Shown: in pieces, positions 3,916 through 45,700 of the stretch
Layout of the letters: every line of letters starts with the position of its first letter
Position numbering within the stretch: position 1 is the stretch's first letter
Source: Clostridia bacterium
Lineage (GTDB): Bacteria > Bacillota > Clostridia > Christensenellales > Borkfalkiaceae
Assembly (NCBI GenBank): GCA_021204825.1
Contig: JAJPYR010000052.1
Location: forward strand, 550 to 64,549
Reading direction: 5' to 3'
DNA: 64,000 bases
The notes under the pieces: model-generated
Databases searched by the model: none
Seen by the model: only the letters and a program-made list of their open reading frames with translations
What the model was told of the DNA's origin: nothing
Program-made: the position numbers and the translations under genes

Positions 3916-4109
3916 CTCTTATACTTAACGCCACAGGCAAAACAGCCCTCTTACAGCGCGTTAAAGGCCCAAACGGGCCCCTTGCGCGCTGCATCTGCAC
4001 ACAGACCTTGCGGGCGGCCTGCAACTGCCGGCTGCCCTGAAGGGCAGAGGCAATTATGCCCGCAGAAGCAAAGCAGGGCGCAAGCAGCAGCTTATGACCT
4101 TCGCAAGAC

Positions 4110-17147: not shown

Positions 17148-18194
17148 TCATCTCTTGATGTCGTAGTTCTGGTTCATAAGGGTCTTTATGGACTCTTCAT
17201 CGTCCGTTATGTTGAAGTCACCGTGCATCGTATGCTTGATGACGGAGGATGCCACGGCGAAGTTCACGAGGGTGTCCGGGTCCATCTCACGCATCATGCC
17301 GAAGATCATGCCGCTGGCGAACGCATCCCCGCCGCCCACGCGGTCCAGGATGGAGAAGCGGAACAGGTTGCTCTCAAAGGTCTCCCCATTGTACCACATG
17401 AATGCCTTAAGGGAGTTCTCGCTGCCGCTGTGGACGTATCTCAAATGCCTGCCTATGGCCTTGAAGTTGTAGCGGTTGTGAAGCTCGCGGAATATCCTGT
17501 CCTGCTCCTTGTAGGAAGGGTACGGGGGCAGGGCGTCCTTCATATCCACGCCGTTCTCGTCCCTTAGGTTGAGGGGCTCTATGCCGAACAGCACATCTAT
17601 GTACGGCAGGTATGTGGTTATGCAGTCCCTGGCTTCCTGCCATCCCCACAGCGCAGACCTGAAGTTGCAGTCAAAGGACACGGTAAGACCTAAGTCCTTT
17701 GCTGCCTTCAGGGCGTACATTGTGAGGTCTCTGCAGTTCTGCGACAGCGCCGGCGTGATGCCGGACATGTGCAGCCAGGTGAAGCCCTTGAGAATCTTCT
17801 CAAAGTCCACCTGCGAGTAGTCATACCTTGAGAACGCGGACCCCTTGCGGTCATAGAACACCTTCGAGGACCTTACGCCGAAGCCTTCCTCGAGGTAGTA
17901 TATTCCAAGCCTGCCGCCCTGTGCATAGATGCAGGGGGAGCAGTGCACGTCATTGGATCTCAAATATCTTATGGCGGCCTTTCCGAGCGCCGTGTCCGGC
18001 ACTACAGAGAAGAATGTGGCATCCACGCCAAGGTTTGCAAGCGCTGCAGCCACATTGGCTTCTGCGCCTCCGTATGTTATGCCGAACGTTGTGGCGTTCT
18101 TAAGCTTTTCATAGTTGGGGGGCGTAAGCCTCATCATGACCTCGCCCATAGTTATGAACCTGTTTCCGGCCAGGCTCTTTTCCTGCTGTTCCAT
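17148..18194 (-). CDS. kdgK: 2-dehydro-3-deoxygluconokinase (PfkB family)
   Basis: Start MEQQEKS with SD AAGGAG 7 nt upstream. YGGAEANVAAALANLG and GGGDAFASGMIFG motifs. Confidence 0.8.
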   Translation of the reverse strand: MEQQEKSLAGNRFITMGEVMMRLTPPNYEKLKNATTFGITYGGAEANVAAALANLGVDATFFSVVPDTALGKAAIRYLRSNDVHCSPCIYAQGGRLGIYYLEEGFGVRSSKVFYDRKGSAFSRYDYSQVDFEKILKGFTWLHMSGITPALSQNCRDLTMYALKAAKDLGLTVSFDCNFRSALWGWQEARDCITTYLPYIDVLFGIEPLNLRDENGVDMKDALPPYPSYKEQDRIFRELHNRYNFKAIGRHLRYVHSGSENSLKAFMWYNGETFESNLFRFSILDRVGGGDAFASGMIFGMMREMDPDTLVNFAVASSVIKHTMHGDFNITDDEESIKTLMNQNYDIKR

Positions 18195-18382
18195 TCTGTC
18201 TCTCCTTGAGAAGTCTGTGCGACACTGTTTTTCCTGCGGGCAAATCTCTTTGCTCAATCATTATACTACACCCGTCTCATTTTGTACAGGGGGCAAATCT
18301 TTTAGCTGTAATTGAAAAGAAGGGGTAACTTAACAAAATAGAGATTTTTACGATAATAAATGCAAATACTGTTCGTTTTTAA

Positions 18383-18411
18383 TTGACATTATAATAATTT
18401 CCGTCTAAAAT
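18383..18411 (+). promoter_or_regulatory. Promoter of XRE/ImmA operon
   Basis: TTGACA (18383-18388), 17 nt, TAAAAT (18406-18411). Followed by a GGAGG SD and the ATG at 18435. Confidence 0.6.
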
Positions 18412-18434
18412 AGGTATCGGAATGGAGGTATATC

Positions 18435-18749
18435 ATGACGGAGGATAGTTTAGGGGGGAGAATGACCGCCTTGTTGAATAGTCAGAACATGACTCAAAAG
18501 GAGCTTGCAGAAAAGGCGGGGATAACAGAGGCCGCAATATCGCATTATATCAAAGGGGATCGTTATCCAAGGTCGTATGTTTTATCAAGGATAGCAGCAG
18601 TTTTAAACACCACAACGGACTATTTAATCGGGGCCACAGGAGAGAATGATGAAATTGCCAATGCTAAAACGTTGCTTGCAAGAAACGCTTCAACAATGAC
18701 AATGCGTCAGAAAAAAGAGATAATGGATATTTTGTTTCCGGATGATTAG
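18435..18749 (+). CDS. XRE-family HTH transcriptional regulator
   Basis: LNSQNMTQKELAEKAGITEAAISHYIKGDRYPRSYVLSRIAAVLNTTTDYLIG (Cro/C1 HTH). Confidence 0.9.
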   Translation: MTEDSLGGRMTALLNSQNMTQKELAEKAGITEAAISHYIKGDRYPRSYVLSRIAAVLNTTTDYLIGATGENDEIANAKTLLARNASTMTMRQKKEIMDILFPDD

Positions 18750-18752
18750 TGG

Positions 18753-19346
18753 ATGGCTATGTATCTTGAGTATGAGACATATGAATATATAAAAGGTGAG
18801 GCTGTAGCGGTATTTAAGCAATATAGCGATTTGTCCTATCCAATTAATGCTTTTGCCGTGGCCAAGGACCTTGGTATTATTGTTGTGCCATATTCAAGTT
18901 TAGCTGATGACATGATGGAAAAATGCATGCAAGAAAGTAAAGATGGGTTTTACTATCCAGGTGATTTTTTTGATGACGAGAACACGACGGATCATATTTA
19001 CTATAATGATTCACAAGTTGAAAGTAGAATAACTTACACTATATTGCATGAGATAGGACATGTAGTGCTTGATCATGAACCAACGACTAATCGTGGACTG
19101 ATAGATGATGATAGACGCGAGGCGGAAGCAAATTTCTTTGCTAAGTATATTCTTGCTCCACCCCCGCTTGTTAATCTGATAATGCCACAGGGTCCAAAGG
19201 ATATAGTCAAATGGTTTCATGTTAGTAAGGAAGCAGGCCAATACGAATACACATATTATCAAAAGTGGCTTGATTTGCCATTTCATATGTATACAGAGTA
19301 TGAATCTTATCTTATAGATAGATTTGCCTGTTGCTTTAATAAGTAA
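18753..19346 (+). CDS. ImmA/IrrE-family (M78, COG2856) zinc metallopeptidase
   Basis: HEIGHVVLDH (HExxH) followed by EAEANFFAKYILAP. Starts 3 nt after the XRE gene. Confidence 0.85.
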   Translation: MAMYLEYETYEYIKGEAVAVFKQYSDLSYPINAFAVAKDLGIIVVPYSSLADDMMEKCMQESKDGFYYPGDFFDDENTTDHIYYNDSQVESRITYTILHEIGHVVLDHEPTTNRGLIDDDRREAEANFFAKYILAPPPLVNLIMPQGPKDIVKWFHVSKEAGQYEYTYYQKWLDLPFHMYTEYESYLIDRFACCFNK

Positions 19347-19432
19347 GTTGAGGTCTTGGTCCACATATCTATGGTGGGCATAAATACATTGACGCGAGCT
19401 GTATTGATACTACCAATGTTAATGCAGCAGAT

Positions 19433-19474
19433 GGAGATATGAATCCTTTGAGTAAGTTTTCATTTCATATCTCC
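19433..19474 (+). repeat. Dyad motif copy A (GGAGATATGAA-20 nt-TTCATATCTCC) containing conserved 22-mer GATATGAATCCTTTGAGTAAGT
   Basis: Perfect 11-bp arms. Located 39 nt upstream of the DUF4417 ATG. Confidence 0.85.
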
Positions 19475-19512
19475 AATATTGTAAATTATAAAAACTTTTA
19501 TAGGAGAGAGAA

Positions 19513-20283
19513 ATGAAAAAAATCTCGAAGAAAGTCCACCATAAAGATGGATCTGTTTCCCGTTGCCCTGAAGATATTTATCGTCTTCTGAATCTCAGTG
19601 TATTGCATTACACGAATATGACACACAGTGCAGAAGGAACGGATATGCCTGTTGTGCCTTGTGATACGCATTTTATCCCGGATTTCCTGGCTCTATACAG
19701 TGAACCAGGATTGTATCATAAAACACCATTAACTGCTGTGTGTTTCTATGAGTATGATTATCTGTTTGATGATATAGATGGAATATACAACGCAATCTAT
19801 TACAACAAGAAGGATTTGCTGGACAGATACAGGGAGAGATTCAAAGATGTCCGCATCTTCATATCGCCGGATTACTCGGAATTTGGTGATTTACACAAGC
19901 CGGAGAATGAATACAGACTGTGGAAAGCCAGAATAGTATCGCTTTGGATTATTAATGATCTTAAAGCAATTCTCATCCCTAGTATAACGTATGTATCAAG
20001 GGAGACTTTCCCTTTTTATTTTAGTGGATTGGAAGATTGTTCTGTTGTTGCCTTCAGTACAAAGGGGCATATCAGGAACAAAGAAGACAGGGCTTTGCTT
20101 GTTGCTGCAGTAAAGTATGCTGTTGACCATCTTCCTCTCAGTACAATAGTTGTTTATTCGGTGTGTGGTCATGACGAGACTTCATTGGAGTTGTTCCGCT
20201 ATGCAAAGGAGAAAGGTGTTGATGTTATAATCCCAAATAACTCTTTACGAGAGCGCAATATGGGAAGGTGCTCTCATGAATAG
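19513..20283 (+). CDS. DUF4417-like protein (function unknown)
   Basis: 256 aa. The pattern ...FYEYDYLFDDIDGIYN...ISPDYSEFGDLHKPENEYRLWKARIVSLW...IPSITYVSRETFPFYFSGLEDCSVVAFST... matches my memory of the DUF4417 family. Its stop overlaps the start of gene X (ATGAATAG). Confidence 0.6.
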   Translation: MKKISKKVHHKDGSVSRCPEDIYRLLNLSVLHYTNMTHSAEGTDMPVVPCDTHFIPDFLALYSEPGLYHKTPLTAVCFYEYDYLFDDIDGIYNAIYYNKKDLLDRYRERFKDVRIFISPDYSEFGDLHKPENEYRLWKARIVSLWIINDLKAILIPSITYVSRETFPFYFSGLEDCSVVAFSTKGHIRNKEDRALLVAAVKYAVDHLPLSTIVVYSVCGHDETSLELFRYAKEKGVDVIIPNNSLRERNMGRCSHE

Positions 20284-20801
20284 CGGCGCATGCAAGCTGA
20301 CAAACGGGCTTGAGGGATTACAGCTTAGCATTAACCAGATTCAAACCATAAATCAGATTTATGAAAACGAGATTGCTTTAGCTGATAAGATATCCGCAGA
20401 GGAGAAGCGCGATTTCTACATGAATAAGTTAGCAAAATCATGTCCTATATCAATCCCTTCAGATACAGAGATTAAATACCAAACTAAGGAAGGGTACATG
20501 CAGGTGACATACACATTTGGCGATGAGAATGTAAAATTTTCATGTAGATGGCATACAAGAAACCCAAAGGCAGCGAAGAAAACAAAAAGCTGCGTGCTAT
20601 TGGGTAATAGAAAAGCATTATATGGGCATAGGGGCAGGTGTGAATCATAGACTATCTGGACGTTATGTTTTGACTGGATTTTCAACTAATGGAGAGCCCA
20701 TATGGACAACCATTGATGATTGGAACAATGCGAAATATGCAAAGTCTACAACAGAAGCACAGAGGCAATTACTGGATGCTGGGCATTGGGAATACAAGTG
20801 A
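20276..20801 (+). pseudogene. Gene X copy 1, frameshifted after the A-run at about 20584-20595
   Basis: Frame 2 ends at 20650 (…KKTKSCVLLGNRKALYGHRGRCES*). Frame 0 from about 20595 continues CYWVIEKHYMGIGAGVNHRLSGRYVLTGFSTNGEPIWTT...DAGHWEYK*, collinear with the C-terminus of intact copy 2. Confidence 0.75.
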
Positions 20802-20925
20802 GTTTTATTGTAAACTCTCCGATCCAATTTTGGATATGCGTTAAAAAATAGGGATGCTGTTTGCATTAAATATTCTCCATAATGAAAAAGCCCGATGAGT
20901 GCTACCAACACCCACCGGGGTAAAG

Positions 20926-20957
20926 GATATGAATCCTTTGAGTAAGTATATTCATAA
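20926..20957 (+). repeat. Dyad motif copy B (same 22-mer, shorter 7-bp stem)
   Basis: GATATGAATCCTTTGAGTAAGT is identical to copies A and C. It lies 46 nt upstream of the Y copy 1 ATG. Confidence 0.8.
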
Positions 20958-20992
20958 TAATATCAAAATTATTTGTTGTCAAGTTTATTTTT

Positions 20993-21409
20993 ATGAGCGG
21001 ACAGCGTATTTACGTGAGGTATAGGACATTGATTATATTTAATTTACCAGATTACAGATTCTATGATGGCTTTGAGGGAGAGGGGGAACTGGAGCTTGAT
21101 TTAGATGGGAATAGAGAAGAATCAATCCATATTTGGGAGGGGTATCTCAATGATGTGCTGCATGACCCAGACTTGAGTGGCAACGGCTGGACTGGTTTCA
21201 TGAGGGACTGGCAGCAAGGTGAAAGAACTCTGGATTCATACAGACAGAATGTTCCCATAGAAGATATAGATGAGTATATAGCGGACTGGAAGCAGTATGA
21301 GAACAGACAATTTATGTTTCCAGACTCCAAAGAATGCTATGAGTTCATTCTGGCTTTCCTGGAATACGCCAAATCCACGGGCCGCATAATATATGCTACA
21401 TACTGGTAA
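20993..21409 (+). CDS. Gene Y copy 1, small acidic protein of unknown function (immunity-like by context)
   Basis: 138 aa ending ...ECYEFILAFLEYAKSTGRIIYATYW*. Paralogue of 22558-22935. The true start may be the TTG at 21029 (LIIFNLPDYRFYDG). Confidence 0.65.
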   Translation: MSGQRIYVRYRTLIIFNLPDYRFYDGFEGEGELELDLDGNREESIHIWEGYLNDVLHDPDLSGNGWTGFMRDWQQGERTLDSYRQNVPIEDIDEYIADWKQYENRQFMFPDSKECYEFILAFLEYAKSTGRIIYATYW

Positions 21410-21436
21410 TCACACAGGAAGACAGCAGGAGACACA

Positions 21437-21589
21437 ATGAAAGTTGCTTTGGACATAAGCACCGTTACTTGCGAGGATATAGACTTCACGCCCCTTAATG
21501 AGACTGCAGCTTCAATGCTCCCTTCGGTGAGAATCCAGATGCCTTTAATGAAAATATAGATGCCATTATAATCGACAAGGTCTAACATA
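21437..21589 (+). pseudogene. Degenerate 5' fragment of the 2-hydroxyacid dehydrogenase gene
   Basis: ATGAAAGTTGCTTTGGACATAAGCACCGTTACTTGCGAGGATATAGACTTCACGCCCC is near-identical to the start of the gene at 22962, including the upstream GGAGACACA SD. It then decays with indels and stops. Confidence 0.85.
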
Positions 21590-21625
21590 AGCTGTGTTAA
21601 TACTACCAATTTTAATGCAGCCAAT

Positions 21626-21667
21626 GGAGATATGAATCCTTTGAGTAAGTTTTTATTTCATATCTCT
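21626..21667 (+). repeat. Dyad motif copy C
   Basis: GGAGATATGAA...TTCATATCTCT, 10-bp arms, same 22-mer. Confidence 0.85.
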
Positions 21668-21706
21668 AATATATATAACTTTACATCAATTTTATTGGAG
21701 AGAGAA

Positions 21707-21844
21707 ATGAAAAAAATCTCGAAGAAAGTCCACCATAAAGATGGAGCTGTTTCCCATTGCCCTAAAGATATTAATCGTCTTATGAATCTTATTTCTCATA
21801 ACTCTTTACGAGAGCGCAATATGGAGAGGTGCTCTCATGAATAG
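21707..21844 (+). pseudogene. In-frame deletion remnant of DUF4417 gene (45 codons: N-terminal ~28 aa joined to C-terminal ~15 aa)
   Basis: MKKISKKVHHKDGAVSHCPKDINRLMNL / ISH / NSLRERNMERCSHE*. It keeps the SD, the ATG and the ATGA-type overlap with gene X copy 2. Confidence 0.8.
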
Positions 21845-22370
21845 TGGTGCATGCAAGCTGACAAGCGGGCTTGAGGGATTACAGCTAAGCATCAACCAGA
21901 TTCAAACCATAAATCAAATTTATGATAATGAGATAGCTCTTGCAGATAAGATATCCGCTGAGGAGAAGCGTGATTTCTACATGAACAAGTTAGCTAAATC
22001 ATGTCCCTTATCAATCCCTTCAGATGCAGAGATTGAGTATCAAACCAAGAATGGGTACATGCAGGTGGCATATACCTTTAGTGATGATAATGCTAAATAT
22101 ACATGCAGATGGCATACAAGAAATCTCAATGCCATGAACAAAACAAAAAAGGCTTGCTATTGGGTTATTGAAAAGCATGTAATGGGGAAAGGCTATGGCA
22201 AGGATTACCACCCTGCAGGGTGGTATGTGCTGACTGGTATTTCAAATAATGGAGAGCCTATATGGACAACAGAAGTTGAGTGGAGAAAAGCACGAAATGC
22301 AAATTATAATAATCATGCAACAGAAGGGCAAAAGGAATTGCTCGAGTCTGGACACTGGGAATACAAATAA
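21837..22370 (+). CDS. Gene X copy 2 (intact), 177-aa protein of unknown function (toxin-like by context)
   Basis: The N-terminal ~57 aa are nearly identical to copy 1 and the C-terminal third is much more diverged. Conserved CRWHTRN and GHWEYK* features. No family recognised. Confidence 0.7.
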   Translation: MNSGACKLTSGLEGLQLSINQIQTINQIYDNEIALADKISAEEKRDFYMNKLAKSCPLSIPSDAEIEYQTKNGYMQVAYTFSDDNAKYTCRWHTRNLNAMNKTKKACYWVIEKHVMGKGYGKDYHPAGWYVLTGISNNGEPIWTTEVEWRKARNANYNNHATEGQKELLESGHWEYK

Positions 22371-22454
22371 CTATATCCAAGGATGAAATATTTTCCGTGC
22401 AATCGAGAATGTGTAATAAAAAAGGAAGTTAAGACCTCGCTATCGAGAACAAAA

Positions 22455-22473
22455 ATCAATTCTTTGAATAAGT
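22455..22473 (+). repeat. Degenerate dyad-motif copy D
   Basis: ATCAATTCTTTGAATAAGT matches ATGAATCCTTTGAGTAAGT at 16/19 positions, upstream of Y copy 2. Confidence 0.5.
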
Positions 22474-22557
22474 GTTTTAATGAAATTATAAACATTAAGT
22501 TTTCGAATACAAGTGAGAAGTTTAGAGACTAAACAACAAAAAGTAGGCTATTTGATT

Positions 22558-22935
22558 ATGGATATGTTTAATTTACCCGATGATCGCTTTTATAACGGCT
22601 ATGAAGATGAACCCGAAGTGGAGCTTTCATTGGATGGCAACGAACAGGAGTCTATCCATATTTGGTTTGGTTACATATCGGATATCTTGGATCATCCTGA
22701 TTTGAGCGGCAACGGATGGACAGGTTTTATGCGGGATTACCAGCAGGGTGAACGTACTATCGAAAATCTTGGCCAAATTGTTCCTATAGATCTGGATGAG
22801 TATATTGCAGACTGGAAGCAATATTCGGACAGGGTTTTTGACTTGCCGGAGACCAAGGAATGTTATGATTTCATCCTTGCCTTCATGGAATACGCCAGGC
22901 GTGAGGGCCGTACCGTCACCGTGACATACTGGTAA
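22558..22935 (+). CDS. Gene Y copy 2, small acidic protein of unknown function (immunity-like by context)
   Basis: MDMFNLPDDRFYNGYEDEPEVELSLDGNEQESIHIW...GNGWTGFMRDYQQGERT...ECYDFILAFMEYARREGRTVTVTYW*. The upstream 15 codons of the track ORF (GTG start) are less likely. Confidence 0.65.
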   Translation: MDMFNLPDDRFYNGYEDEPEVELSLDGNEQESIHIWFGYISDILDHPDLSGNGWTGFMRDYQQGERTIENLGQIVPIDLDEYIADWKQYSDRVFDLPETKECYDFILAFMEYARREGRTVTVTYW

Positions 22936-22961
22936 ACACACGGAGAACAGCAGGAGACACA

Positions 22962-23906
22962 ATGAAAGTTGCTTTGGACATAAGCGCCGTTACATGCGGG
23001 GATATAGACTTCACGCCCTTTGAGGAACTTGGAGAGGTTGTGCTCTTCAATGAGCCCTCGAAGGAGGAGCTGCATGCGCTTGCCGCGGACACAGATGCCA
23101 TTATAGTGAACAAGGTCCTTATAGACAGGGACTTTTTGGCGCATGCGCCTTTGCTCAGATACGTGGGGCTGTTTGCTACAGGGTACAACAACATAGACCT
23201 GCAGGCGTGCAGGGAGAGGGGCATAGTGGTTTCAAACGTGCCCGCATATTCCACAAACGCCGTCACACAGCATGTCTTTGCCCTTCTGCTGTCCCTTATG
23301 GGAAAGATACCGGAATATGCTGCATCCGTGCAGCAGGGAGACTGGATACGCAGCAGGGCGTTCTGCTACTTCCCCTGGCCAACATATGAAATCTCCGGCA
23401 AGACATTCGGCATCATAGGATACGGCAGCATTGGAAGGAGCGTGGCCAGGGTGGCGGACGCTTTCGGATCCAGGGTTATTGTCAACACCCGCACAAAGCC
23501 TCAAGACTGCGCGTATGAGCTCGTGTCCAAGGAAACCATATTCCGCACAGCGGACATTGTGTCGCTGCACTGCCCTCTCACAGACCAGACAGCAAAGCTT
23601 GTGAACGCAGACACCCTGGCCATGATGAAGCCCACGGCGTACCTTGTCAACGCCGCCCGCGGAGGCCTCGTGGATGAGCCGGCCTTGGCCGCCGCCCTCA
23701 ACGAAGGACGCATAGCGGGAGCGGGAGTGGACACCATCTCAGAAGAGCCCATGAAGGCCTCCAACCCTTTGCTTGGCGCAAGGAACTGCATCATAACACC
23801 CCATATAGCCTGGGTGCCGCATGAGACCCGGGACAGGCTTGTTCATACCGCCCTCTCCAACCTCAAGGCATTCCTTGCAGGCAGGCCGCAGAATACAGTC
23901 TCTTAA
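22962..23906 (+). CDS. D-isomer-specific 2-hydroxyacid dehydrogenase (glycerate/hydroxypyruvate reductase-like)
   Basis: GIIGYGSIGRSVA NAD motif, ...NAARGGLVDE..., ...ITPHIAW catalytic His region. Confidence 0.85.
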   Translation: MKVALDISAVTCGDIDFTPFEELGEVVLFNEPSKEELHALAADTDAIIVNKVLIDRDFLAHAPLLRYVGLFATGYNNIDLQACRERGIVVSNVPAYSTNAVTQHVFALLLSLMGKIPEYAASVQQGDWIRSRAFCYFPWPTYEISGKTFGIIGYGSIGRSVARVADAFGSRVIVNTRTKPQDCAYELVSKETIFRTADIVSLHCPLTDQTAKLVNADTLAMMKPTAYLVNAARGGLVDEPALAAALNEGRIAGAGVDTISEEPMKASNPLLGARNCIITPHIAWVPHETRDRLVHTALSNLKAFLAGRPQNTVS

Positions 23907-25294: not shown

Positions 25295-25635
25295 TGTCTT
25301 CCCATGGGCAGACTGCTGCCCGCAAAAATTTCCTGTCCATTATATCATACAAAATATCAATTGTAAAAGCATTTGATTCCGCCTTTTTACAGAATCTGCA
25401 AGAATCTGAAGAATATAAAGCATTTGTAAAGATCACATAAAAATAAAAGCTTGATATATTTCCGCATTTTGAGGAAAAACATAAAAATATTCAACCTGTG
25501 CGGTTGGAATCGGACTTTTGACGTCTGATTGCTGACCGCATAGTTTTTTACTCTTCAAATTCATCGTGTAAAGTGGTCCGGTTCTGGACCCTTTAAATTG
25601 CTTGGTTTGTAGGTAAGTATTTTTTACATTTTTTC

Positions 25636-25664
25636 TTTACATTCTGCCTATATACGTGTATAAT
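25636..25664 (+). promoter_or_regulatory. IS-internal promoter
   Basis: TTTACA, 17 nt, TATAAT, upstream of the SD AAAGAGG and the ATG at 25699. Confidence 0.5.
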
Positions 25665-25698
25665 ACTTTGTAATGTAGGTAAGAAAGAGGCTTTACAG

Positions 25699-25941
25699 AT
25701 GTTCGTTCACGCCATACCAAACAACCGTGGCAAGAAAGATGGATACTTCTGTTCTCTGGTAGAATCACATCGTGTTAATGGAGTTCCAACACATAAAACG
25801 ATTCTTTCCTTTGGGTTCATCCCTGCTGAAAGGGTTCCATATCTGAAAGCTGCCTTCAATACCGGAGATCCTGAGGAAATCTTAGCTCAGGAGAAAAGTA
25901 GGTTAGAAAACAGAAGGACGGAGGCACAGAAAGATGAGTAA
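25699..25941 (+). CDS. IS ORF1, small N-terminal/accessory protein
   Basis: 80 aa. GYFCSLVESHRVNGVPTHKTILSFG resembles N-terminal segments of IS4/IS1634-type transposases. Its stop overlaps the ORF2 ATG (GATGAGTAA). Confidence 0.55.
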   Translation: MFVHAIPNNRGKKDGYFCSLVESHRVNGVPTHKTILSFGFIPAERVPYLKAAFNTGDPEEILAQEKSRLENRRTEAQKDE

Positions 25942-26215
25942 ACAGACAGGCAAAACAGAACCCAAGAAACAGGCAACCCTTGAGGTAATTGCAAGAATTA
26001 CGGATGCCGATGGAACTGTTGTGGAGAAGATAACATCCTCCATAGGTTTCCCCTCTACTGATGACTTTGATTTGGAGACCCGTGAGGGGTTCCTGAATGA
26101 CTTTGATCCTATGGAGAAAGCCGGTCTGGAGGGGCGCGAGGCTATCCCGCAGGTCTGTTCCGAATACCTTGAAGTTGCAGCATCCAAAAAAAAACCAAAA
26201 AAGGAAGACGAGTAA
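25934..26215 (+). CDS. IS ORF2, N-terminal part of transposase (upstream of A9 slippery run)
   Basis: 93 aa ending ...EVAASKKKPKKEDE*. The A9 run lies at 26186-26194. Confidence 0.55.
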   Translation: MSKQTGKTEPKKQATLEVIARITDADGTVVEKITSSIGFPSTDDFDLETREGFLNDFDPMEKAGLEGREAIPQVCSEYLEVAASKKKPKKEDE

Positions 26216-26265
26216 CATCTGTTGAGTCTGAACTGGGGCGTGTACCGTTCTCCTGCTTTGGTTCA

Positions 26266-27477
26266 TTGGCCGGTTCTATTCAACCCAAAGAACGCATTCC
26301 GTCTTACGGGTTTACGGAGCTTTGCTGCCGTTTTAGTACTTCGTGTAGTTATCGCAAATCCGTTGAGATGATAAACAGAGTCTTCCACAGACCCGTTGCA
26401 GATGAGATAAAAGACCGCACTTTCTCTGACTACATACATCGTGTTGGGGAGGGAATTATATCAACAGAGCAAAGTGCTTCCAATAACATACTGCAGGTAT
26501 TTGGCTTTGATTCCAAAACCGGACAGCTGAAAGAGAATGTCACTTTGCCTAATGATTTCACTGGAAATGTGGAAGATGAAGATGGTGATTCCACCCCCAC
26601 ATATACAGAAGAAGACATCCAGGGTGCAATTGATGAAATCAATGGATCCAGAGACAAGAAGATTACTGCAAAGGCAGATGATATCCAGGCTGAAATAGAA
26701 ACCAATTCAGACACTGCAGTATATATCTCAATAGATCACATAGGAGTGACGCGCCAGAAGGACATTAGAAAAGGCAATGCTGTCCGGGAGACAAAGTATG
26801 TACAGAACTGTGTAGCTCATATTCAGCAGAGTGATAACAGATATGTCCTTACAAGTGTTGACACGGACAGCCTTTTTAAGGCTGTTCTGGCTTTTCTTCT
26901 TGCCAACAATCTGCTCAAATATAATCTCGTATTCTTTACGGACGGTGCAACTGACCTCAAGTCTAAAATTGCATCGTTCTTTTCATTCCGTCCATACAAA
27001 CTTATTCTCGATTGGTATCACATAGAGAAAAGAATATATGAGATTTTGAGTATGGCTGTTTCAGGGAACAAGGCAAAGAAACAAGGAGTCCTGGAGAATA
27101 CGCTTGGATACTTGTGGGTTGGCGATGTTGACGGAGCTGCCAATTTCATAAAGTCACTTCCTAACAGTGACATTAAAAATGCCGCGAAGGTACAGGAAGT
27201 TCTTAACTATCTGGACAAAAAGGCTCCGAATATGGCCTGTTATGCGGTACGGAAGCAACTTGGACTCAGAGTATCCAGCAACCGCGTTGAAAAGGAGAAC
27301 GATATGTTGGTGGCAAGCAGACAGAAGCACAATGGTATGTCATGGACCAAGGACGGAAGTGGTTCCTTGGCGGCAATTGAAATGATATACCAAAACAAAC
27401 AGGAAAAACTCTGGTTCCAAAAGAAGCAGATTCTTGGCATCACCATGGTTGCCTCAGTGACCCTTAAAGCAGCCTGA
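26266..27477 (+). CDS. IS ORF3, DDE transposase catalytic part (ISLre2/ISKra4-like); frame is open from 26173
   Basis: ISIDHIGV..., FFTDGATDL, LDWYHIEKRIYE, VSSNRVEKENDMLVASRQKHNGMSWTKDGSGSLAAIE are typical of this transposase group. A -1 shift at the A9 run would fuse it to ORF2. Confidence 0.8.
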   Translation: MAGSIQPKERIPSYGFTELCCRFSTSCSYRKSVEMINRVFHRPVADEIKDRTFSDYIHRVGEGIISTEQSASNNILQVFGFDSKTGQLKENVTLPNDFTGNVEDEDGDSTPTYTEEDIQGAIDEINGSRDKKITAKADDIQAEIETNSDTAVYISIDHIGVTRQKDIRKGNAVRETKYVQNCVAHIQQSDNRYVLTSVDTDSLFKAVLAFLLANNLLKYNLVFFTDGATDLKSKIASFFSFRPYKLILDWYHIEKRIYEILSMAVSGNKAKKQGVLENTLGYLWVGDVDGAANFIKSLPNSDIKNAAKVQEVLNYLDKKAPNMACYAVRKQLGLRVSSNRVEKENDMLVASRQKHNGMSWTKDGSGSLAAIEMIYQNKQEKLWFQKKQILGITMVASVTLKAA

Positions 27478-27554
27478 CAAACTATTCCAACCGCACAGGT
27501 TGAAAATATTCCGCGCTGATTTTTTATTCTTTTGTTCAATATACCTAAAAAACG

Positions 27555-27583
27555 TTTACTTTTTATTGAAAATACTATATAAT
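27555..27583 (+). promoter_or_regulatory. Promoter of XRE-M78/PIN operon
   Basis: TTTACT, 17 nt, TATAAT, then the SD GGAGGTG and the ATG at 27605. It lies about 50 nt from the right end of the IS. Confidence 0.55.
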
Positions 27584-27604
27584 ATAAACATTGGAGGTGA
27601 AATT

Positions 27605-28648
27605 ATGAGTTCATTTAGCAAGAATTTAAGATTTTACAGGTTGAAGAGTGGAATGACGAAGAAGGAGTTGGCGGACAAGTGCCAGCTTACCCCGATGGCA
27701 ATCTCTAATTATGAGAATGGGAAGCGTACCCCTAGATATGATCTTATTGAAGAGATTGCAAATGTGTTGAACGTTCGCTTTGTCGATCTTATTAATACTA
27801 GAGATGAGTCACTGGTTTTCAGTTATGGGGAATTCAGGAAGAGTGAATCTTTAAGTGGCTATCAGGAAGAACTGATAAAGGCGTCCACAGAAGATTACCT
27901 TGACAGTCTTCTCAGTGCTGCTTTTTTCATTTCAGGGAAGGTTTTACCTGACTGTCCTTCTTGTCATGTCCTGAATTTGAGCGACAATATTGAAAATGAT
28001 GCAAAAGCGCTGAGGCAGTATCTTGGTTTCCCTTTAAGCGGACCCATCCCCAATATGATTACTTCACTTGAGAATAAGGGCATACTTGTTTACAAATGTT
28101 ATGACGCCGGGGAGGCTTTTTCTGGTATGAACGGGTTTGTGAATGACAGACCGTTCATAGTGATTAATGGGAATATGAATCCTGAAAGGAATCGCGCAAC
28201 CATGGCACACGAACTCGCACATTTGATGTTTATAAGGGATGATGCAATGTCATCCAAGGCCATAGAGAGCAGGGTTACCGCAATCAGTGGGGCCTTTCTT
28301 ATAGGATTAGCTGATTTACAGCTTGAAGTTGGAATTAAGAGAGATGAAATCACTTCGGACATGCTTATGGTCTGCAAAAAGTATGGAATATCATCCTGCT
28401 TGCTGGTTAGGAGAATGAAAGTAACGGGTATTATAGAAGACAGTCTAGAAGAACAGTTCTATACGGATCATCCTAGCTGGCACGAAGAAGAACCGTCACG
28501 TATACAGGATGAGTCATCAGATTTATTAGAGCAGTTAGTACTCCGTGCTATATCAGAGAGAGAAATCAGCATAATGAAAGGGGCTGAGCTCCTAAAAGAT
28601 AATTATGATGGAGTTCTAAATAGATTAAATAGGATAAGAGAGGGTTAA
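27605..28648 (+). CDS. Fused XRE-HTH / ImmA-IrrE (M78, COG2856) metallopeptidase protein (antitoxin/sensor-like)
   Basis: Start MSSFSKNLRFYRLKSGMTKKELADKCQLTPMAISNYENGKRTP (HTH). HELAHLMF (HExxH) in the central domain. The N-terminal 35 aa of the track ORF are rejected. Confidence 0.85.
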   Translation: MSSFSKNLRFYRLKSGMTKKELADKCQLTPMAISNYENGKRTPRYDLIEEIANVLNVRFVDLINTRDESLVFSYGEFRKSESLSGYQEELIKASTEDYLDSLLSAAFFISGKVLPDCPSCHVLNLSDNIENDAKALRQYLGFPLSGPIPNMITSLENKGILVYKCYDAGEAFSGMNGFVNDRPFIVINGNMNPERNRATMAHELAHLMFIRDDAMSSKAIESRVTAISGAFLIGLADLQLEVGIKRDEITSDMLMVCKKYGISSCLLVRRMKVTGIIEDSLEEQFYTDHPSWHEEEPSRIQDESSDLLEQLVLRAISEREISIMKGAELLKDNYDGVLNRLNRIREG

Positions 28649-29191
28649 ATGACACTAATAAGCAGTGATACTAACATTTGGCTTGATTTTGAAGCCATAG
28701 GGGAACTTGATGTTCCCTTCCTTTTACCTTATACGTACCTGATGGCCAAGAAGGCTATCTCCAAGGAAATTCTTCGCCCTGAAGATCTTGCATTGAGGTT
28801 AAAAAGATATGGTCTGAAAGGAGTAACTCTTGATGAGACCGAAGAGCTTTTGGTGGAATCATATAGCAGCAATAACATGCCCAAGTGCTTTCGCAGACTG
28901 ACCAACTATGACAGGATGGCACTTGCTATAGCAAAAAACCGCGGCATCATGTTGCTAACAGGTGATAACTATTTAAGACAGGCCGCTGAGGCAGAGCACG
29001 TTCCTTATATGGGAACAATCGGGCTTCTGGACAAGCTCAATGAAGCGGGGTTTAGGGAGCAGTACAGCAGGTGTTTGCAGGCCTTTTACAAGGCATTGAA
29101 CGATGTGAGAATTCGTTTACCCAAGGAAGAACTCAAGACCAGATTGGATATTTTGGAAGCGTCTGAAGGAGGTAAGCACACGGATGAATAA
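28649..29191 (+). CDS. PIN-like nuclease domain protein (DUF3368/COG2405-like), putative toxin
   Basis: The ATG directly abuts the upstream TAA (TAAATG). N-terminal SSDTNIWLDF (acidic PIN residue), ...YDRMALAIAKNRGIMLLTGDNYLRQAAEAEHVPYMGTIGLLDKL resembles the PIN C-terminal half. Confidence 0.65.
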   Translation: MTLISSDTNIWLDFEAIGELDVPFLLPYTYLMAKKAISKEILRPEDLALRLKRYGLKGVTLDETEELLVESYSSNNMPKCFRRLTNYDRMALAIAKNRGIMLLTGDNYLRQAAEAEHVPYMGTIGLLDKLNEAGFREQYSRCLQAFYKALNDVRIRLPKEELKTRLDILEASEGGKHTDE

Positions 29192-29226
29192 GGAATGAAT
29201 GAGTCATATTCAGAACGTTATTTCGC

Positions 29227-39762: not shown

Positions 39763-42700
39763 ATGAAGCGGATTACCAAATGCATAGTGGCTTTGCTTTT
39801 CTGCGTGGCAATTGTGTGCTGCGCCCTGGCCGCCGGATGCACATTAACTAATGTGAAGATATATCTGGAGGGGGAGGAAGGCATCTCGTTCAATACTGAA
39901 GAAGTGGAGACGGATACAGACGGCAATGCGTACATAAGTGCGTGCAGAGGCTGCACTTATGCCGTGGACGCCATAACCTCCGGCTGTTACACCTTGGATC
40001 CCGGCTGCCATCTGGAAGGCTGGACGCTGTACGTGGACGACGTAAAGCAGGAGATATCCGGCACCGAGACGGCCCTCACCTTTGAGTTCAAGGTAAACTA
40101 CGGATCCACATACACTCTCAAAGCCAGCGTTGCCCCTGCCGAGACAACGGATATAACCCTTGAGGGCGCAGACGGGCTTACAATCCAAACGCAAACAATC
40201 TCCGCTATCATAGACGTTCCATTCTCCGTATCCACCATCCCGGATGACGCATACACCCTTGAGGGTGACTGCACCTTCAACGGATGGACCCTTTACGTGG
40301 ACGGTGAAGAGACCGAAATGCCGGATGACGGCACCTTCACTCCGGAAAGCGGCCACACATACGTTCTCAAAGCAAACACTATTATTCCTGTGGAATCCGT
40401 TACAGTCAGCCAGTCTGCAGTATCCCTTACACTTGGGTCGGATGACGTATCCAAAGAATCTGCAAGCGTAACTGTTTCTGTAACGCCGGATAATGCCTCC
40501 AGCAAAAACTGGACGGCGTCAAGCAGCGACACAGGGGTTGCCACTGTAACTGAGAGCGGCGAAGGAAACGGCTCCATAACCATTACAGCCGTGTCCAAAG
40601 GCAACGCCACCATAACAGTAACAGCATCGGACGGCAGCGGCAAGTCTGCAGACATAGAGGTAACAGTAACCCAGCTTGTTACAGGCATATCTGCAGATGC
40701 AAGCCAGGCAGAGCTTCCTGCAGGCGTATCCATTGAATGCGGCATTACTGTAACTCCTTCAGATGCAACAGACACAAGCTGGACGGCGTCAAGCGCGGAT
40801 TCATCTGTTGCAAGGGTTTCTCTGGATAATGATTCATTCAGCGAGTCAGTCACAGGAACTGGTGATGCAACTCTGTACATCAATGGCGAGGGCATCGGCG
40901 AAACTGCCATAACCATAACGTCCACAGACGGCAATGCCACATACTCAATCAGTGTGACAGTTGTGGCATCTGAGACTGGATTCTCCATAACATCATATGA
41001 TGACACGCTGTATGTGGGCGGTGGCACTTCTGCATTTGCAGCCACCATGTACTTCTCGGATAACTCCAGCCGTACCAGCGGATTTACCTGGTCGTCTTCA
41101 GATCCCTCCGTTGCCACAGTCAACAACTATGGCGAGGTAACGCCGGTTGCAAAGGGCACGACCACAATAACGGCATCCTGTTTATATGAAGGCGAGACAT
41201 ACACTACAGCCGGAGTAGTGGTAACGGTAGTGCAGCTTGTAACGGAGATTAAGACAAGCGAGACATCCGTAAGCCTTACTGTCAACGGCTCAAATAATAC
41301 AGCAGCCATAACAGTATCCGCAGAGCCTTCAGATGCGGATGTGCAGACCTGGACAGCGGCAAGCAGCAACGAAAGCATAGCCACAGTATCTCAGAGCGGA
41401 GATACAATAACCATCACGGCCGTTGCGACAGGCAGCGCTTCAATAATCATTGCATCTACGGACGGCGGGGCTGAGGCTGCAGTCAATGTTTCCGTAACCA
41501 ATCCCATATCCGGCATATCAATCAGCTCAGATCTCCATGAGATAACCGTTGGCAGCAGCACAGCATTAGACATCACCGTTACTCCATCGGATGCGGATGA
41601 AACAGGCTGGACCATTTCCAGCAATTCAGATGCCGTGACCCTTGGCACAACAAGCGGAGCCGGCACAGAAACAGTAACCGTCACAGGAGCGAAGGCCGGC
41701 ACGGCTGCCATAACGGTAATTTCCACAGCAGACTCCAACATTACGGCCTCCATAGAGGTAACGGTAGTGCAGCTTGTTACAGAAATTACAGCAGGCGAGT
41801 CTTCCGTATCCCTCATTCTCGGCGGAGATGAGGCAGATACAACAGCAGACGTAACAATCTCTATAACCCCGGATGATGCCTCCAATAAAGATTGGACTGC
41901 AACCAGTGATAATGAAGATGTTGCAACAGCTACATCCAGCGGAGAGGGAGACGGCAGCGTAACCATTAAAGCCGTTAAGGCCGGCACGGCTACAATAACC
42001 ATAGCATCCGCAGACGGCAATGCAAGAACAACAATCTCCGTAACCGTGACCCAGCTTGTAACAAGCATTGAAGCAGGACAGTCTTCCGTATCCCTTGTTC
42101 TCGGAACAGATGACACAGCCAACGAGTCCGCTACGGTAGCCATTACTGTAACGCCTTCAGATGCTTCCGATGCAGCCTGGACTGCATCTAGCAGTGATAC
42201 TGGCGTTGCTACAGTAACAGAGAGCGGAAACGGCTCCGGCAACTTAACAATCACGGCCACAGCAGCAGGTACGGCAACCATAACCATTACCGGAACAGAT
42301 GCCAATGCAAAGACAGCTACAGTACAGGTAACGGTAACCCAGCTTGTAACCGGATTCACTTTAGGCGAAGAGTCTGTGGACCTCACTCTCGGCGGAGATT
42401 CTTCACTTGCTTCCACAATCGTAACAGTGCAGGTAGATCCTTCAGATGCTACCAACCAGGAGTGGACTGTATCAAGCGATGATACATCAGTTGCAACTGT
42501 TGCAAAGAGCGGAGACAACTCTGGTGTAGTCATTACAGCAGTAAAGGCCGGAGATGCCACAATAACCATCACAGCATCAGATGACGGCGCCGTAACAGCT
42601 ACAATTTCCGTATCCGTAACGCAGCTCGTAACCAAGATTGAAGCAGCCTCTAATTATGTAGAGCTTCCTGTAGGCGAAACCAGCATTACCCATACAGATG

Positions 42701-45700
42701 AAATAACAACTATTGAGCCTTCAGATGCATCCAACATGAACTGGACTGCTACAAGCAATGACACAACTGTGGCAACAGTTACACCTGAGAGCGGAACCGG
42801 CACAGGCGTATCCATAACCATAACCGGTGTGGCAATGGGCGAGGCCACCATAACCATAGGCTCCGAAGACGGTAACGTTACGTATGAAATAACTGTAAAG
42901 GTAGTGGCGGCCGAGACAGCATTCTCTATAACATCATCCACAAGCACACTGTATGTAGACGGGGATTCCTCCACATTCGTGGCTACGATGTACTTCTCAG
43001 ACGGCACCAGCATAACAGAAGGTTTCACATGGACATCCTCAGATTCTTCCGTAGCTACAGTAGAAGATGGCGTTGTAACACCTGTTGCAAAGGGCACAAC
43101 AACTATAACCGCTACATATGAGTATGAGGACGAAACCTTCACTGTATCCAATCCTATAGAGCTTACAGTAGAGCAGCTCGTAACAAGCATTGAAGCCGGA
43201 GAGAATTCTGTAGACCTTGTTCTCGGCGGAGATTCTTCACTTGCTTCTGCAACAGTTGACATCACTGTAGCACCTTCAGACGCCAACAACCAGGCTTGGA
43301 CAGCAACAAGCGACAATGAATCCGTTGCAACCGTAACAGCCAGCGGTGAGGGTACAGGCAGCATAACCATTACGGCGGTTGCTGCAGGAACAGCCACTAT
43401 AACCATCAAGGCGTCAGACAACGGCGGCGAGACGGCTATAATAACCGTAAACGTAACTCAGCTTGTAACCAGCATCACGGCAGATGAGGATTCTGTATCA
43501 CTCATCCTCGGCGGAGATGAAGATGATGCTTCCACAACAGTAGCCATAACTGTAGAGCCTTCAAACGCTACAAACGCAGCCTGGACAGCAACCAGCAATG
43601 ACGAGACAGTTGCTACAGTAGAATACACAGGCAACGGAACAGGCACAGTAACAATCACAGCGGTAGCAGCCGGCACAACAACCATAACCATTACCGGATT
43701 AGATGCCAATGCCAAGACAACTACCATAACCGTAACAGTAACCCAGCTCGTGACAAACATCACGGCAGATGAGACTTCTGTGACACTCATTCTTGGTTCT
43801 TCAGATACCGCAAATGAGTCCGCTACAGTAACCATCACAGTAGAGCCCACAGACGCCACTAACGCTGCATGGACGGCATCAAGCAGTGATACAGATGTTG
43901 CAACAGTAACAGGTACAGGCAACGGCACTGGCAGCATAACAATCACAGCCGTGGCAGCAGGCACGGCAACAATAACCATTACCGGAGCAGACGCCAATGC
44001 CAAGACGGTTGCAATCTCTGTAACAGTAACCCAGCTTGTAACAGAAATCACTGCAAGCGAGTCCTCCGTAGACCTCATCCTTGGCTCCGGAGACACGGCC
44101 AATGAGTCTGCTACAGTAACCATTACTGTAGATCCTTCAGACGCTACAAACGGAGCATGGACTGCAGAGAGCAGCAATACAGGCGTTGCAACAGTAGAAT
44201 ATACTGGAAACGGAACAGGCAGTATAACAATCACAGCAGTTGCAGCAGGTGAGGCTACAATAACCATCACCGGAACAGACGCCAATGCAAAGACTGCTTC
44301 CATAACCGTTAACGTAACCCAGTACATAACAGGCTTCACGCTAGGCAGTGATTCTGTTGCACTTATCCTTGGCGGAGATGCAGATGATGCAACTGCAGAT
44401 GTAACAGTAGCTGCAGTTCCTACAGACGCATCTAACCAGAACTGGACAGTATCCAGCAGCAATACGGGCGTTGCTACAGTATCCAAGGCCGGAGATGATT
44501 CATACATCACTATAACAGCAGTTGCAGCAGGCGAGGCAACAATAACCATTACGGCATCAGACAATGGCGCAAAGACCGTTATAATCTCCGTATCCGTAAC
44601 ACAGCTTGTAACCAAGATTGAGGCGGAGGAGTCTTCTGTATCCCTTACGCTTGGAACAGACAGCACAGCCAATGAGTCTGCTACAGTAGCCATTACCGTA
44701 TCTCCGGATGATGCCTCCAACGCAGCATGGACTGCAACCAGTGATGATGAAGATGTTGCAACTGTAACATCTGGCGGCACAGGAGAGGGTAGCATAACCA
44801 TTAAAGCCGTTAAGGCCGGCACGGCTACAATAACCATTGCATCCTCAGACGGCAATGCAAGCACAACAATCACTGTCTCTGTAACTCAGCTCGTAACAAG
44901 CATTACTCTTGAGCCTTCAACAGATACAGATATCATTGTCGGAGACACTCTGGATGTAACTGTAATGGTTGGACCGGAGGATGTAACAGATGATTCCTGG
45001 ACTGTATCCAGCGGCAATGATTCCGTTGCGTCTATAACAAAGAATGAAAATGGCACATTCACCATTACTGGTGCGACCGTAAGCGCAACTCCTGTTACCA
45101 TAACGGTAACAGCAGGAGACGGCAGCGGCGTAACAGCTGCAATCACTGTAACAGTAGTTGCCAGAGAGGAAGGCTTCTCCATAACGACATCCACAGACAC
45201 GCTGTATGTAGACGGAGATACCTTCACCTTTGAAGCTGCAATGACCTTCTCAGACAGCACAAGCATAACGGAAGGCTTCACGTGGACATCTTCAGATTCT
45301 ACTGTGGCTACAGTAGATTCCGAGACAGGCGTTGTAACACCCTTAGCAAGTGGCACAACCGACATTACCGCCACATATGAGTATGAAGGCACAACATACA
45401 CAACAACTGCCGTAACTGTAAGAGTCATACAGCTTGTAACAGCAATCGAGACAAGCGAGTCTGAAGTAAATCTTACAGTCAACGGATCGGCAACTGTTAC
45501 TATATCCGTAACACCGGATAATGCAGATGACCAGACATGGTCTGCTGTATCCAATTCCGCATCCGTTGCCACGGTCACAGACAACGGGAACGGCACAATC
45601 ACCATCACGGCTGTTAGCGTCGGCAGTACTTCAATCGTTATAGCATCCACAGATCAAGGCGCCGAAGCTGTTATCACTGTCGTTGTAACCAATCCTGTAA

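Follow-up and report, generated by a model that had tools for sequence, protein, structure and literature searches.

Two tandem units of a DUF4417-led cassette form a probable polymorphic toxin/immunity array in a Clostridia genome

Polymorphic toxin loci with orphan C-terminal toxin/immunity modules, such as those of the Rhs, CdiA-CT/CdiI, LXG and MafB systems, have a recognizable build (Zhang et al, 2012, PMC3482391): carriers that differ in their trafficking parts have the toxin domain in common, the immunity gene comes directly after the toxin gene, adjoining copies share a constant 5′ part and differ in a diverged 3′ part plus immunity gene, and displaced or broken toxin copies retain the immunity gene. 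We analyzed a 64,000-nucleotide (nt) stretch of DNA, here called the window, from a Clostridia bacterium of the family Borkfalkiaceae (genome G000 in our set; GenBank assembly GCA_021204825.1, contig JAJPYR010000052.1, positions 550 to 64,549), and found a locus that resembles these systems in each of those respects. It consists of two forward-strand units, at 19397–21589 and 21590 to about 23121, built from a DUF4417 gene, a gene for a small protein that we call X, and a gene for an acidic protein that we call Y. It differs from the loci described there in that the toxin is a 177-amino-acid (aa) stand-alone protein without a recognized trafficking domain, in that this toxin is translationally chained to the DUF4417 gene, and in that the iterated unit includes DUF4417, an RNA leader and a piece of a chromosomal gene. 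With a probability of about 0.62, we read the locus as two tandem units of a DUF4417-led polymorphic toxin/immunity cassette, with diverged alleles, relatives that carry Y only, and a working state that we propose below.

Polyimmunity loci and proteins (Zhang et al, 2012, PMC3482391) resemble what we find in sister genomes, where Y stands alone or as two Y domains in one open reading frame (ORF), behind a single promoter and in one orientation; as here, their content differs between close relatives. The sisters hold only one or two copies of a single family, and the Y genes of G000 are interrupted by toxin genes, so by the definition given there the G000 locus is not a polyimmunity locus. The S8-PTS, a three-component polymorphic toxin system of Gram-positive bacteria (Li, Tan and Zhang, 2022, PMC9424270), likewise pairs an immunity gene with an accessory protein that stays constant and a small toxin whose N-terminal part is constant and whose toxin domain is exchangeable; at our locus DUF4417 takes the accessory place, rather than an S8 peptidase. 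The MuF polymorphic toxins of temperate phages (Jamet et al, 2017, PMC5576092) are connected through phages, by way of an X-type protein in genome G145 and of the phage-enriched DUF4417; none of the proteins tested here has a MuF domain, and no phage structural genes lie beside the cassette in the window.

The two units are collinear, as the first-pass annotation had described from the letters: a repeat search, gapped alignment and BLAST against the own genome all returned direct repeats, and sliding-window identity followed them throughout. Six long repeat families are spaced 2193–2194 nt start to start before a deletion in the second DUF4417 copy and 1525–1569 nt after it. Three pieces of unit 2 searched against the own genome gave BLAST E-values of 5e-141, 2e-69 and 5e-69, and the units were found at no other place in the whole genome. 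In gapped alignment, identity is 92–93% for 19397–19594 against 21590–21788 and 87% for 20237–20588 against 21798–22149. MAFFT-based sliding windows and gapped alignment together give 88–95% between units over the spacer, the leader and the first 27 DUF4417 codons, and 87–93% over the end of DUF4417 and the first ~70 X codons. In sliding windows, identity goes down to 57–77% in the remainder of X, 23–55% in the X–Y spacer and 60–73% in Y, and stands at 80–92% over the Y stop codon, the Shine–Dalgarno (SD) sequence and the first ~90 nt of a D-2-hydroxyacid dehydrogenase gene.

The right end of unit 1 is a decayed copy of the SD and first ~150 nt of this dehydrogenase gene (21417–21589, from the repeat search and alignments), also in agreement with the first-pass annotation. 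The ~175-nt copy has an indel-ridden distal half: its first 82 nt are 87% identical, the remainder is 61% identical with indels, and overall raw divergence is ~25%. The last ~160 nt of unit 2 are the 5′ end of the live gene. At the junction, 21589/21590, dehydrogenase nucleotides ~160–175 are fused to the spacer upstream of DUF4417, giving the collinear head-to-tail copies and new right-end-to-left-end junction of a tandem duplication. Since the junction joins dehydrogenase to cassette spacer, the array formed where the cassette already abutted that gene. An origin in situ, across the boundary between cassette and chromosome, had been proposed before; it is upheld by this fusion and by three derived states that the fragment shares with the dehydrogenase gene of G000 relative to those of the sister genomes L020, G476 and G477, which indicate that the junction was made in this lineage after its split from them.

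Unit 1 carries the intact DUF4417 gene (19513–20283, 256 codons; Pfam PF14386, E = 9.5e-16; phrog_8680 and phrog_940), whose stop overlaps the start of X1. A +1 frameshift that falls within 20584–20594, next to a run of five A's at 20584–20588, interrupts X1 (20276–20801), much as the earlier reading had it; a profile of X homologues matches both pieces, and the sequence is identical in Logan contig L022. The first frame stops at 20650, and the second is open from 20595 to 20801 (68 codons). In unit 2, DUF4417 is a 45-codon in-frame remnant (21707–21844, by ORFs and alignment), net 633 nt shorter, that has kept its SD, ATG, stop and 8-nt overlap with the start of X2, again as previously noted; X2 (21837–22370) is intact. 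The Y gene is open in both units (Y1, 21029–21409; Y2, 22558–22935). The array thus holds one intact DUF4417 (unit 1 only), one intact X (unit 2 only), two open Y genes and one predicted small RNA (sRNA), and its protein-coding content is the same as counted in the first pass.

Word-seeded searches with X and Y returned only their own copies, one sister genome and one Logan contig; exhaustive HMMER searching placed X. An exhaustive phmmer search of 1.84e9 representative proteins yielded 222 matches to X, all of them remote, in which X residues ~50–175 always align to the extreme C-terminus of proteins 118–2478 aa long. The carriers include, by Pfam, proteins with RHS_repeat, with PAAR and prePAAR, and with SpvB/TcdB_midN and RHS, and by precomputed domains, proteins with WXG100, PT-HINT, RHS core and DUF4280. 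The same C-terminal domain therefore stands behind differing N-terminal trafficking domains, the hallmark of polymorphic toxins, and its place at the extreme end of carriers so different in length and trafficking domain marks X residues ~50–175 as a polymorphic-toxin C-terminal domain, with RWHT and, at the C-terminus, GHW among its conserved positions. The AlphaFold 2 model of X2 has a mean predicted local distance difference test score (pLDDT) of 82.8, mostly above 90 in the domain, with the N-terminal 50 residues as two low-confidence helices. X has no match in Pfam, NCBIfam, PADLOC or PHROGs, and Pfam detects no MuF domain in X or in the 1015-aa carrier of G145.

Stand-alone X homologues also occur. 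In four JGI/ENA metagenome contigs (L057–L060), X-domain genes for 127–174 aa lie at 4001–4384/4525, between murA-like and spoIID genes; a Y-like trace of only ~15 residues follows, with no recognizable immunity gene. A further stand-alone homologue, in L055, has a type I restriction system and an AAA_21 ATPase next to it. No clear Y was found with the stand-alone homologues in either setting.

Y1 is an acidic protein of 126 aa (isoelectric point (pI) 4.2) with a TTG start and an upstream in-frame ATG at 20993, and its ratio of nonsynonymous to synonymous divergence (dN/dS) against the Y of a sister genome is 0.10; it has no intact partner toxin in this genome. Y2 (125 aa, pI 4.1, pLDDT 84.5) is the predicted cognate immunity protein of X2. 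A profile search found Y homologues in 11 of the 399 scored genomes of the class at E ≤ 0.01, seven of them below 1e-20, with G000 included in both counts. Wherever the flank is available (G288, G410, G145, G335 and G226), the Y homologue comes directly after, or overlaps, a gene for an X-type domain. In G288, DUF4417, a 244-aa X homologue and Y are chained by start/stop overlaps, and the database protein P0012 is an X–Y fusion. In G145, a prophage carries genes for terminase, portal and a 509-aa protein, then one for a 1015-aa protein with the X-type domain at its end, and Y is next. This conserved linkage, with Y as the downstream partner of X in at least six other genomes and immediately downstream as polymorphic-toxin immunity genes are, makes Y a likely immunity protein. 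It also leads us to reject an explanation suggested by the sister's single Y, that Y is native to the site and has nothing to do with the cassette, since X-type toxins are followed by Y in unrelated genomes. For the two orphan families we thus propose roles, X as a toxin domain common to RHS, PAAR, WXG100 and PT-HINT effectors and Y as its partner.

Y has no match in Pfam, NCBIfam, PADLOC or PHROGs and no sequence-profile match in the PDB, and a search with Y of metagenome and viral contigs found no related locus. The G145 locus (L076, G145:C23, 5001–13272) is a prophage head block with a large terminase and a P22-like portal; its 509-aa and 1015-aa proteins have no Pfam match and may be a MuF-like toxin carrier of an unrecognized family.

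We sampled 30 DUF4417 loci from the 399 genomes of the class. In most of them the next ORF begins on the DUF4417 stop, so the overlap of DUF4417 stop and toxin start is the norm, and in 17 this ORF carries a leader MGxGxxGNFGNTKG followed by a variable C-terminus. A pair of helix-turn-helix (HTH) and M78 genes lies just upstream in 4 of the 30. The window has the layout of this class, with a DUF4417 stop overlapping the start of a small toxin gene and then an immunity gene; the N-terminus of X, MNSGACKLTSGLEG, aligns with MGCGLTSGLTSGK and MSCGKNSGVTNGG of homologues but fails the motif. In the literature, DUF4417 appears as a phage-enriched domain that is often fused to a ParB-type fold, or is listed for a phage protein. 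We found neither a tie of DUF4417 to toxins nor a description of a DUF4417-led toxin/immunity cassette class in the literature searched. None of DUF4417, X and Y matched a PADLOC model, and scanning genome contigs for DUF4417 gave only two related loci, both distant. The 2-Mb genome has four further DUF4417 genes (C27:18654–19202, C28:14789–15259, C96:17393–17899 and C89:6296–6826), which score 83–144 bits on the Pfam model against 58 for the island copy; none is accompanied by an X-type toxin domain.

The array occupies a chromosomal site that differs among close relatives. We surveyed the site by DNA search of 156 genomes (the whole genus) and one NCBI contig. A kinase gene and the dehydrogenase gene are adjacent, divergent and ~135 nt apart in ten congeneric species. 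In G476 the site is empty: the kinase is followed by an ancestral promoter, TTGCTA-17-TATAAT, and the dehydrogenase. L020 (GCA_965308025.1) has a single Y between that promoter and the dehydrogenase, and in G477 a single ORF in this position, behind the ancestral dehydrogenase promoter, joins two Y domains. G000 carries the full island, and the ancestral promoter is gone, replaced by it. The relatives, which the first-pass annotation had wanted compared for a single-unit ancestral state, thus show an empty site, one Y and a Y–Y fusion. These genomes indicate that toxin-less Y genes do occur in this lineage, which supports reading the surplus Y as an orphan immunity gene. That earlier proposal holds up on three lines: X ends in a toxin-type domain, Y is its downstream partner elsewhere, and sister genomes keep Y alone or as a Y–Y fusion. 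The four states of one site in close relatives offer a natural example of a compact toxin/immunity cassette growing and shedding parts, a pattern to be expected if strains fight with interchangeable toxins.

The G477 gene (L080, G477:C32, 757–1788) is one ORF of tandem Y domains, 39% identical to each other, with no toxin gene; in the sense of Zhang et al (2012) it encodes a polyimmunity protein, of the homogeneous kind. The single Y of L020 lies between two copies of a short direct repeat, CACACGAAA (1820–1850 and 2235–2260). The empty site of G476 (L081, ~1480–1520) has the same sequence once, as GCACGGAAG, which could mark how Y entered between promoter and dehydrogenase.

Divergence between the units is uneven. 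The N-terminal 104 codons of X have a synonymous divergence (dS) of 0.60, against a baseline of 0.63–0.64 for kinase and dehydrogenase between G000 and L020, and the ~25% raw divergence of the dehydrogenase fragment fits a neutral copy of an age of dS ~0.6. The C-terminal half of X has a dS of 1.4 and a dN/dS of 0.21, and this half and Y are saturated, with a proportion of synonymous differences (pS) of 0.64–0.79 (0.76–0.79 for Y1 against Y2) and dN/dS of 0.1–0.2. High divergence with low dN/dS points to long divergence under purifying selection rather than decay. Y is also a mosaic across G000, L020 and G477, so that a constant 5′ part adjoins variable toxin/immunity alleles, as in polymorphic toxins. 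Of the 74 informative sites over codons ~6–95, the Y of L020 agrees with Y1 at 61, where the N-terminal part of Y1 has a dS of 0.72 and a dN/dS of 0.10 against it, and with Y2 at 15 of 16 informative sites at the end; the C-terminus of Y1, KSTGRIIYATYW, resembles that of the first Y of G477, RSTGRKIYVTYR. The units thus probably hold old, diverged alleles of the X C-terminal domain (X-CT) and Y that were joined or exchanged by recombination, and we infer at least two recombination tracts, or else integration/excision by crossing-over inside Y. Given the low dN/dS in its out-of-frame part, X1 seems to have broken recently relative to the divergence of the alleles.

Each unit opens with an RNA leader (leader 1, 19425–19512; leader 2, 21618–21706; defined by the repeat family and by folding). 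An identical 22-mer occurs at 19436, 20926 and 21629 in our repeat search, with a degenerate copy at 22452. The leader-1 copy, 19436–19457, lies inside an 11-bp dyad (19432–19442/19463–19473), and leader 2 has the same 22-mer at 21629–21650 and the dyad. Both leaders can take alternative folds of the same kind: one that hides the SD and AUG (−25.7 kcal/mol in leader 1 and −24.9 in leader 2) and a dyad hairpin that leaves them free (−22.0 and −17.0 kcal/mol). The 22-mer copy at 20926 lies in a candidate antisense sRNA of ~65–70 nt on the reverse strand (20878–20982), which emerged from a promoter scan, a terminator, its fold and duplex energies. Its near-consensus promoter is TTGACA-17-TATTAT at 20982–20954, the transcript would run from ~20947 to 20880, and a 13-bp terminator hairpin lies at 20919–20891; the fold has −26.1 kcal/mol (z = −4.9). 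Over its first 22 nt the transcript is the complement of the 22-mer, in both leaders as well as at its own locus, and it would pair with one arm of each dyad, with duplex energies of −37.5 and −39.8 kcal/mol. The unit-2 counterpart (22395–22480) is degenerate and has lost the fold (z = 0.46), so a single sRNA gene appears to be left in the array for two intact leaders. The candidate has no Rfam match. The par/Fst-type type I toxin–antitoxin systems likewise have a small convergent RNA that matches, at its 5′ end and in antisense, repeats in the leader of the toxin operon, a leader that can hide its SD; the toxin here would be a protein with its own protein immunity, and one predicted sRNA gene would serve two leaders.

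The first-pass annotation also suggested that the DUF4417 remnant is kept for translational coupling into X2, and selection for such coupling is plausible. The longest exact identity between the units, 49 nt, spans the SD, the ATG and the first 13 codons of the remnant; together with the stop/start overlap usual in the class and the alternative folds common to both leaders, it is compatible with selection for a controlled entry of ribosomes into X2. Three points call for caution. A deletion stays in frame by chance one time in three. An SD-like sequence of X2's own, GGAGAGGTG, lies just upstream. A 39-nt exact identity also spans the start of the useless dehydrogenase fragment, so gene conversion could account for both identities.

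The array lies in a low-GC island (18298–22941) between a PfkB-family 2-dehydro-3-deoxygluconokinase-like gene (17148–18257, reverse strand; NCBIfam) and the intact dehydrogenase gene (22962–23906, forward strand; Pfam 2-Hacid_dh_C, E = 8e-58; NCBIfam). The island is delimited by the composition profile, the end of homology to L020 at 18297 and alignment with the empty site of G476; it spans 4.6 kb and has 35–43% GC, against 52–59% in the flanks. A promoter-like site, TTGACA-17-TAAAAT (18383–18411, forward strand; 11 of 12 positions in a consensus scan, a consensus match only), precedes two forward-strand regulatory genes, for a CapH-like XRE-family HTH repressor (18435–18749; Pfam HTH_3, E = 2.6e-14; PADLOC capH, E = 6.7e-13) and a CapP/ImmA-like M78 metallopeptidase with an HEIGH motif (18753–19346; Pfam Peptidase_M78, E = 5.9e-11; PADLOC capP, E = 8.4e-12). 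CapH/CapP regulators occur in CBASS and other defence operons, and ImmR/ImmA in ICEBs1. As in these, an XRE HTH repressor gene followed by a gene for an M78 peptidase with HExxH adjoins an operon, upstream of co-directional cargo; the cargo here is the toxin/immunity cassette and not a CBASS or mobile-element excision module.

In the working state that we propose, X2 would be the one toxin made: its expression would start at leader 2 and pass by way of the 45-codon remnant ORF, whose end lies on the X2 start codon, and Y2 would be its cognate immunity protein. X1 would be dead, and Y1 would be a further immunity protein, retained for protection from competitors' X1-type toxins. The single DUF4417 of unit 1 would serve in trans, and the single antisense sRNA of unit 1 would pair with the 22-mer in both leaders, favouring the SD-hiding fold. 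A stress signal would open the operon by way of the CapH-like repressor and the CapP-like protease. The duplication would be about as old as the sister-species split (dS ~0.6), and later at least two recombination tracts would have swapped the core of X-CT and the Y N-terminal part, and the Y1 C-terminus, for foreign alleles. A unit without DUF4417 but with an intact toxin gene would also serve as a natural test of any need for DUF4417 in cis. More tentatively, and as a doubtful extension of the model, the array could be a long-lived division of labour, in which two diverged alleles have been kept for about the lifetime of the species and share DUF4417 and the sRNA in trans through conserved leaders, with DUF4417-led cassettes as an undescribed, phage-linked deployment of small interchangeable toxins, here with a toxin fold and an immunity fold unlike any solved one.

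Several points weigh against the polymorphic toxin/immunity reading. We infer the toxicity of X and its neutralization by Y solely from gene order and the sharing of domains. A signal peptide is absent from X, as is any secretion domain by Pfam, NCBIfam and PADLOC, so that X has no recognizable route of delivery, and its N-terminus is only a distant version of the class leader. The model of X has no significant Foldseek match in the PDB, where X has no sequence-profile relative either; the model of Y likewise has no significant Foldseek match, and its best hit, YfbM (1ryl), has an E-value of 2.4 and was not used. The sRNA is predicted from a consensus promoter, a terminator and a fold, and that it or DUF4417 acts in trans is conjecture. 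Several recombination histories, ours among them, would fit the mosaic, and how the units are ordered beyond a 30-nt exact repeat at 21624–21653 depends on the assembler of the source genome.

That genome is a 102-contig metagenome-assembled genome (MAG), and the two units have exact repeats of 30–49 nt in common, so two strain variants of a single-unit cassette might have been joined, or the frameshift might be a homopolymer error; we give such an artefact very little chance. Two Logan contigs of run SRR15221361 are letter-identical to the window at 19522–21451, frameshift included, and at 21716–22976, and both end exactly 30 nt into exact inter-unit repeats (19503–19551/21697–21745, 49 nt; 21422–21460/22947–22985, 39 nt), as a k = 31 graph does when both units are present. 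The run of five A's at 20584–20588, whose length the first-pass annotation wanted checked, is the same in the MAG and in this independent assembly, and is short for a systematic error. The stretch 21461–21623 is unique, with the indel-ridden dehydrogenase start and then a second, distinct copy of the spacer, and no single-unit strain could supply it; we therefore reject the idea that the MAG is chimeric between two strains here. Exact searches for DUF4417 and for a 40-codon ORF in the dehydrogenase fragment gave no further contigs. With both units taken as real, a simple history is one in-situ tandem duplication of an identical unit followed by independent mutational decay to one DUF4417, one X and two Y genes. 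The collinear units with the dehydrogenase fragment at their junction, the complementary losses, and the agreement of X N-terminal dS (0.60) and fragment divergence (~25%) with one event all fit it. We nevertheless consider it unlikely, because the C-terminal half of X, the X–Y spacer and Y are two- to many-fold more diverged than their flanks, the dN/dS of 0.1–0.2 there speaks of purifying selection rather than decay, and the single Y of L020 matches Y1 over its first ~95 codons and Y2 at its end, with the Y1 C-terminus like a third allele, that of G477. Of the reciprocal decay described in the first pass, the complementary losses stand; a single duplication followed by point decay is not supported in that form, given the saturated X-CT/Y, its low dN/dS and the mosaic Y.

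The state of X1 and the sphere in which X and Y act also bear on the working model. If the A-run were a slippery site, ribosomal or transcriptional slippage would give some full-length X1, and both toxins would be made, each with its own immunity protein. The second frame is indeed open for 68 codons with a dN/dS of 0.21 against X2, and the shift sits at an A-rich run of lysine codons. Five A's are short for efficient slippage, relatives need no such device (the G288 gene is uninterrupted), and a recent break alone can explain the low dN/dS, so a living X1 appears highly improbable to us. Somewhat less remote, and still improbable, is that X and Y are an intracellular toxin–antitoxin or abortive-infection pair of a CapH/CapP-gated defence island, with the extra Y as a spare antitoxin. 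The match of the regulators to capH/capP of defence systems, the absence of an export signal in X, the stand-alone X homologue of L055 next to a type I restriction system and AAA_21 ATPase, and a predicted antisense-RNA gate like type I toxin–antitoxin control would all suit such a pair. The same domain, however, ends RHS, PAAR, WXG100 and PT-HINT proteins, which are secreted effectors; toxin-less Y and the Y–Y fusion in relatives fit protection against an incoming toxin better than an addiction module; and DUF4417, X and Y match no defence-system model of PADLOC.

Elsewhere in the window, a second low-GC stretch (25300–29200, 35–45% GC) begins just past a lipoprotein gene and is possibly another small mobile or defence island. 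It contains a gene for a 382-aa fused HTH and M78 peptidase protein (27500–28648) and two ORFs without a Pfam match (25699–25941 and 26266–27477). At 39763–48456, a 2897-aa ORF with 19 Big_2 repeats and hyaluronate-lyase-N and cadherin-like matches encodes a giant protein of the surface-adhesin type.

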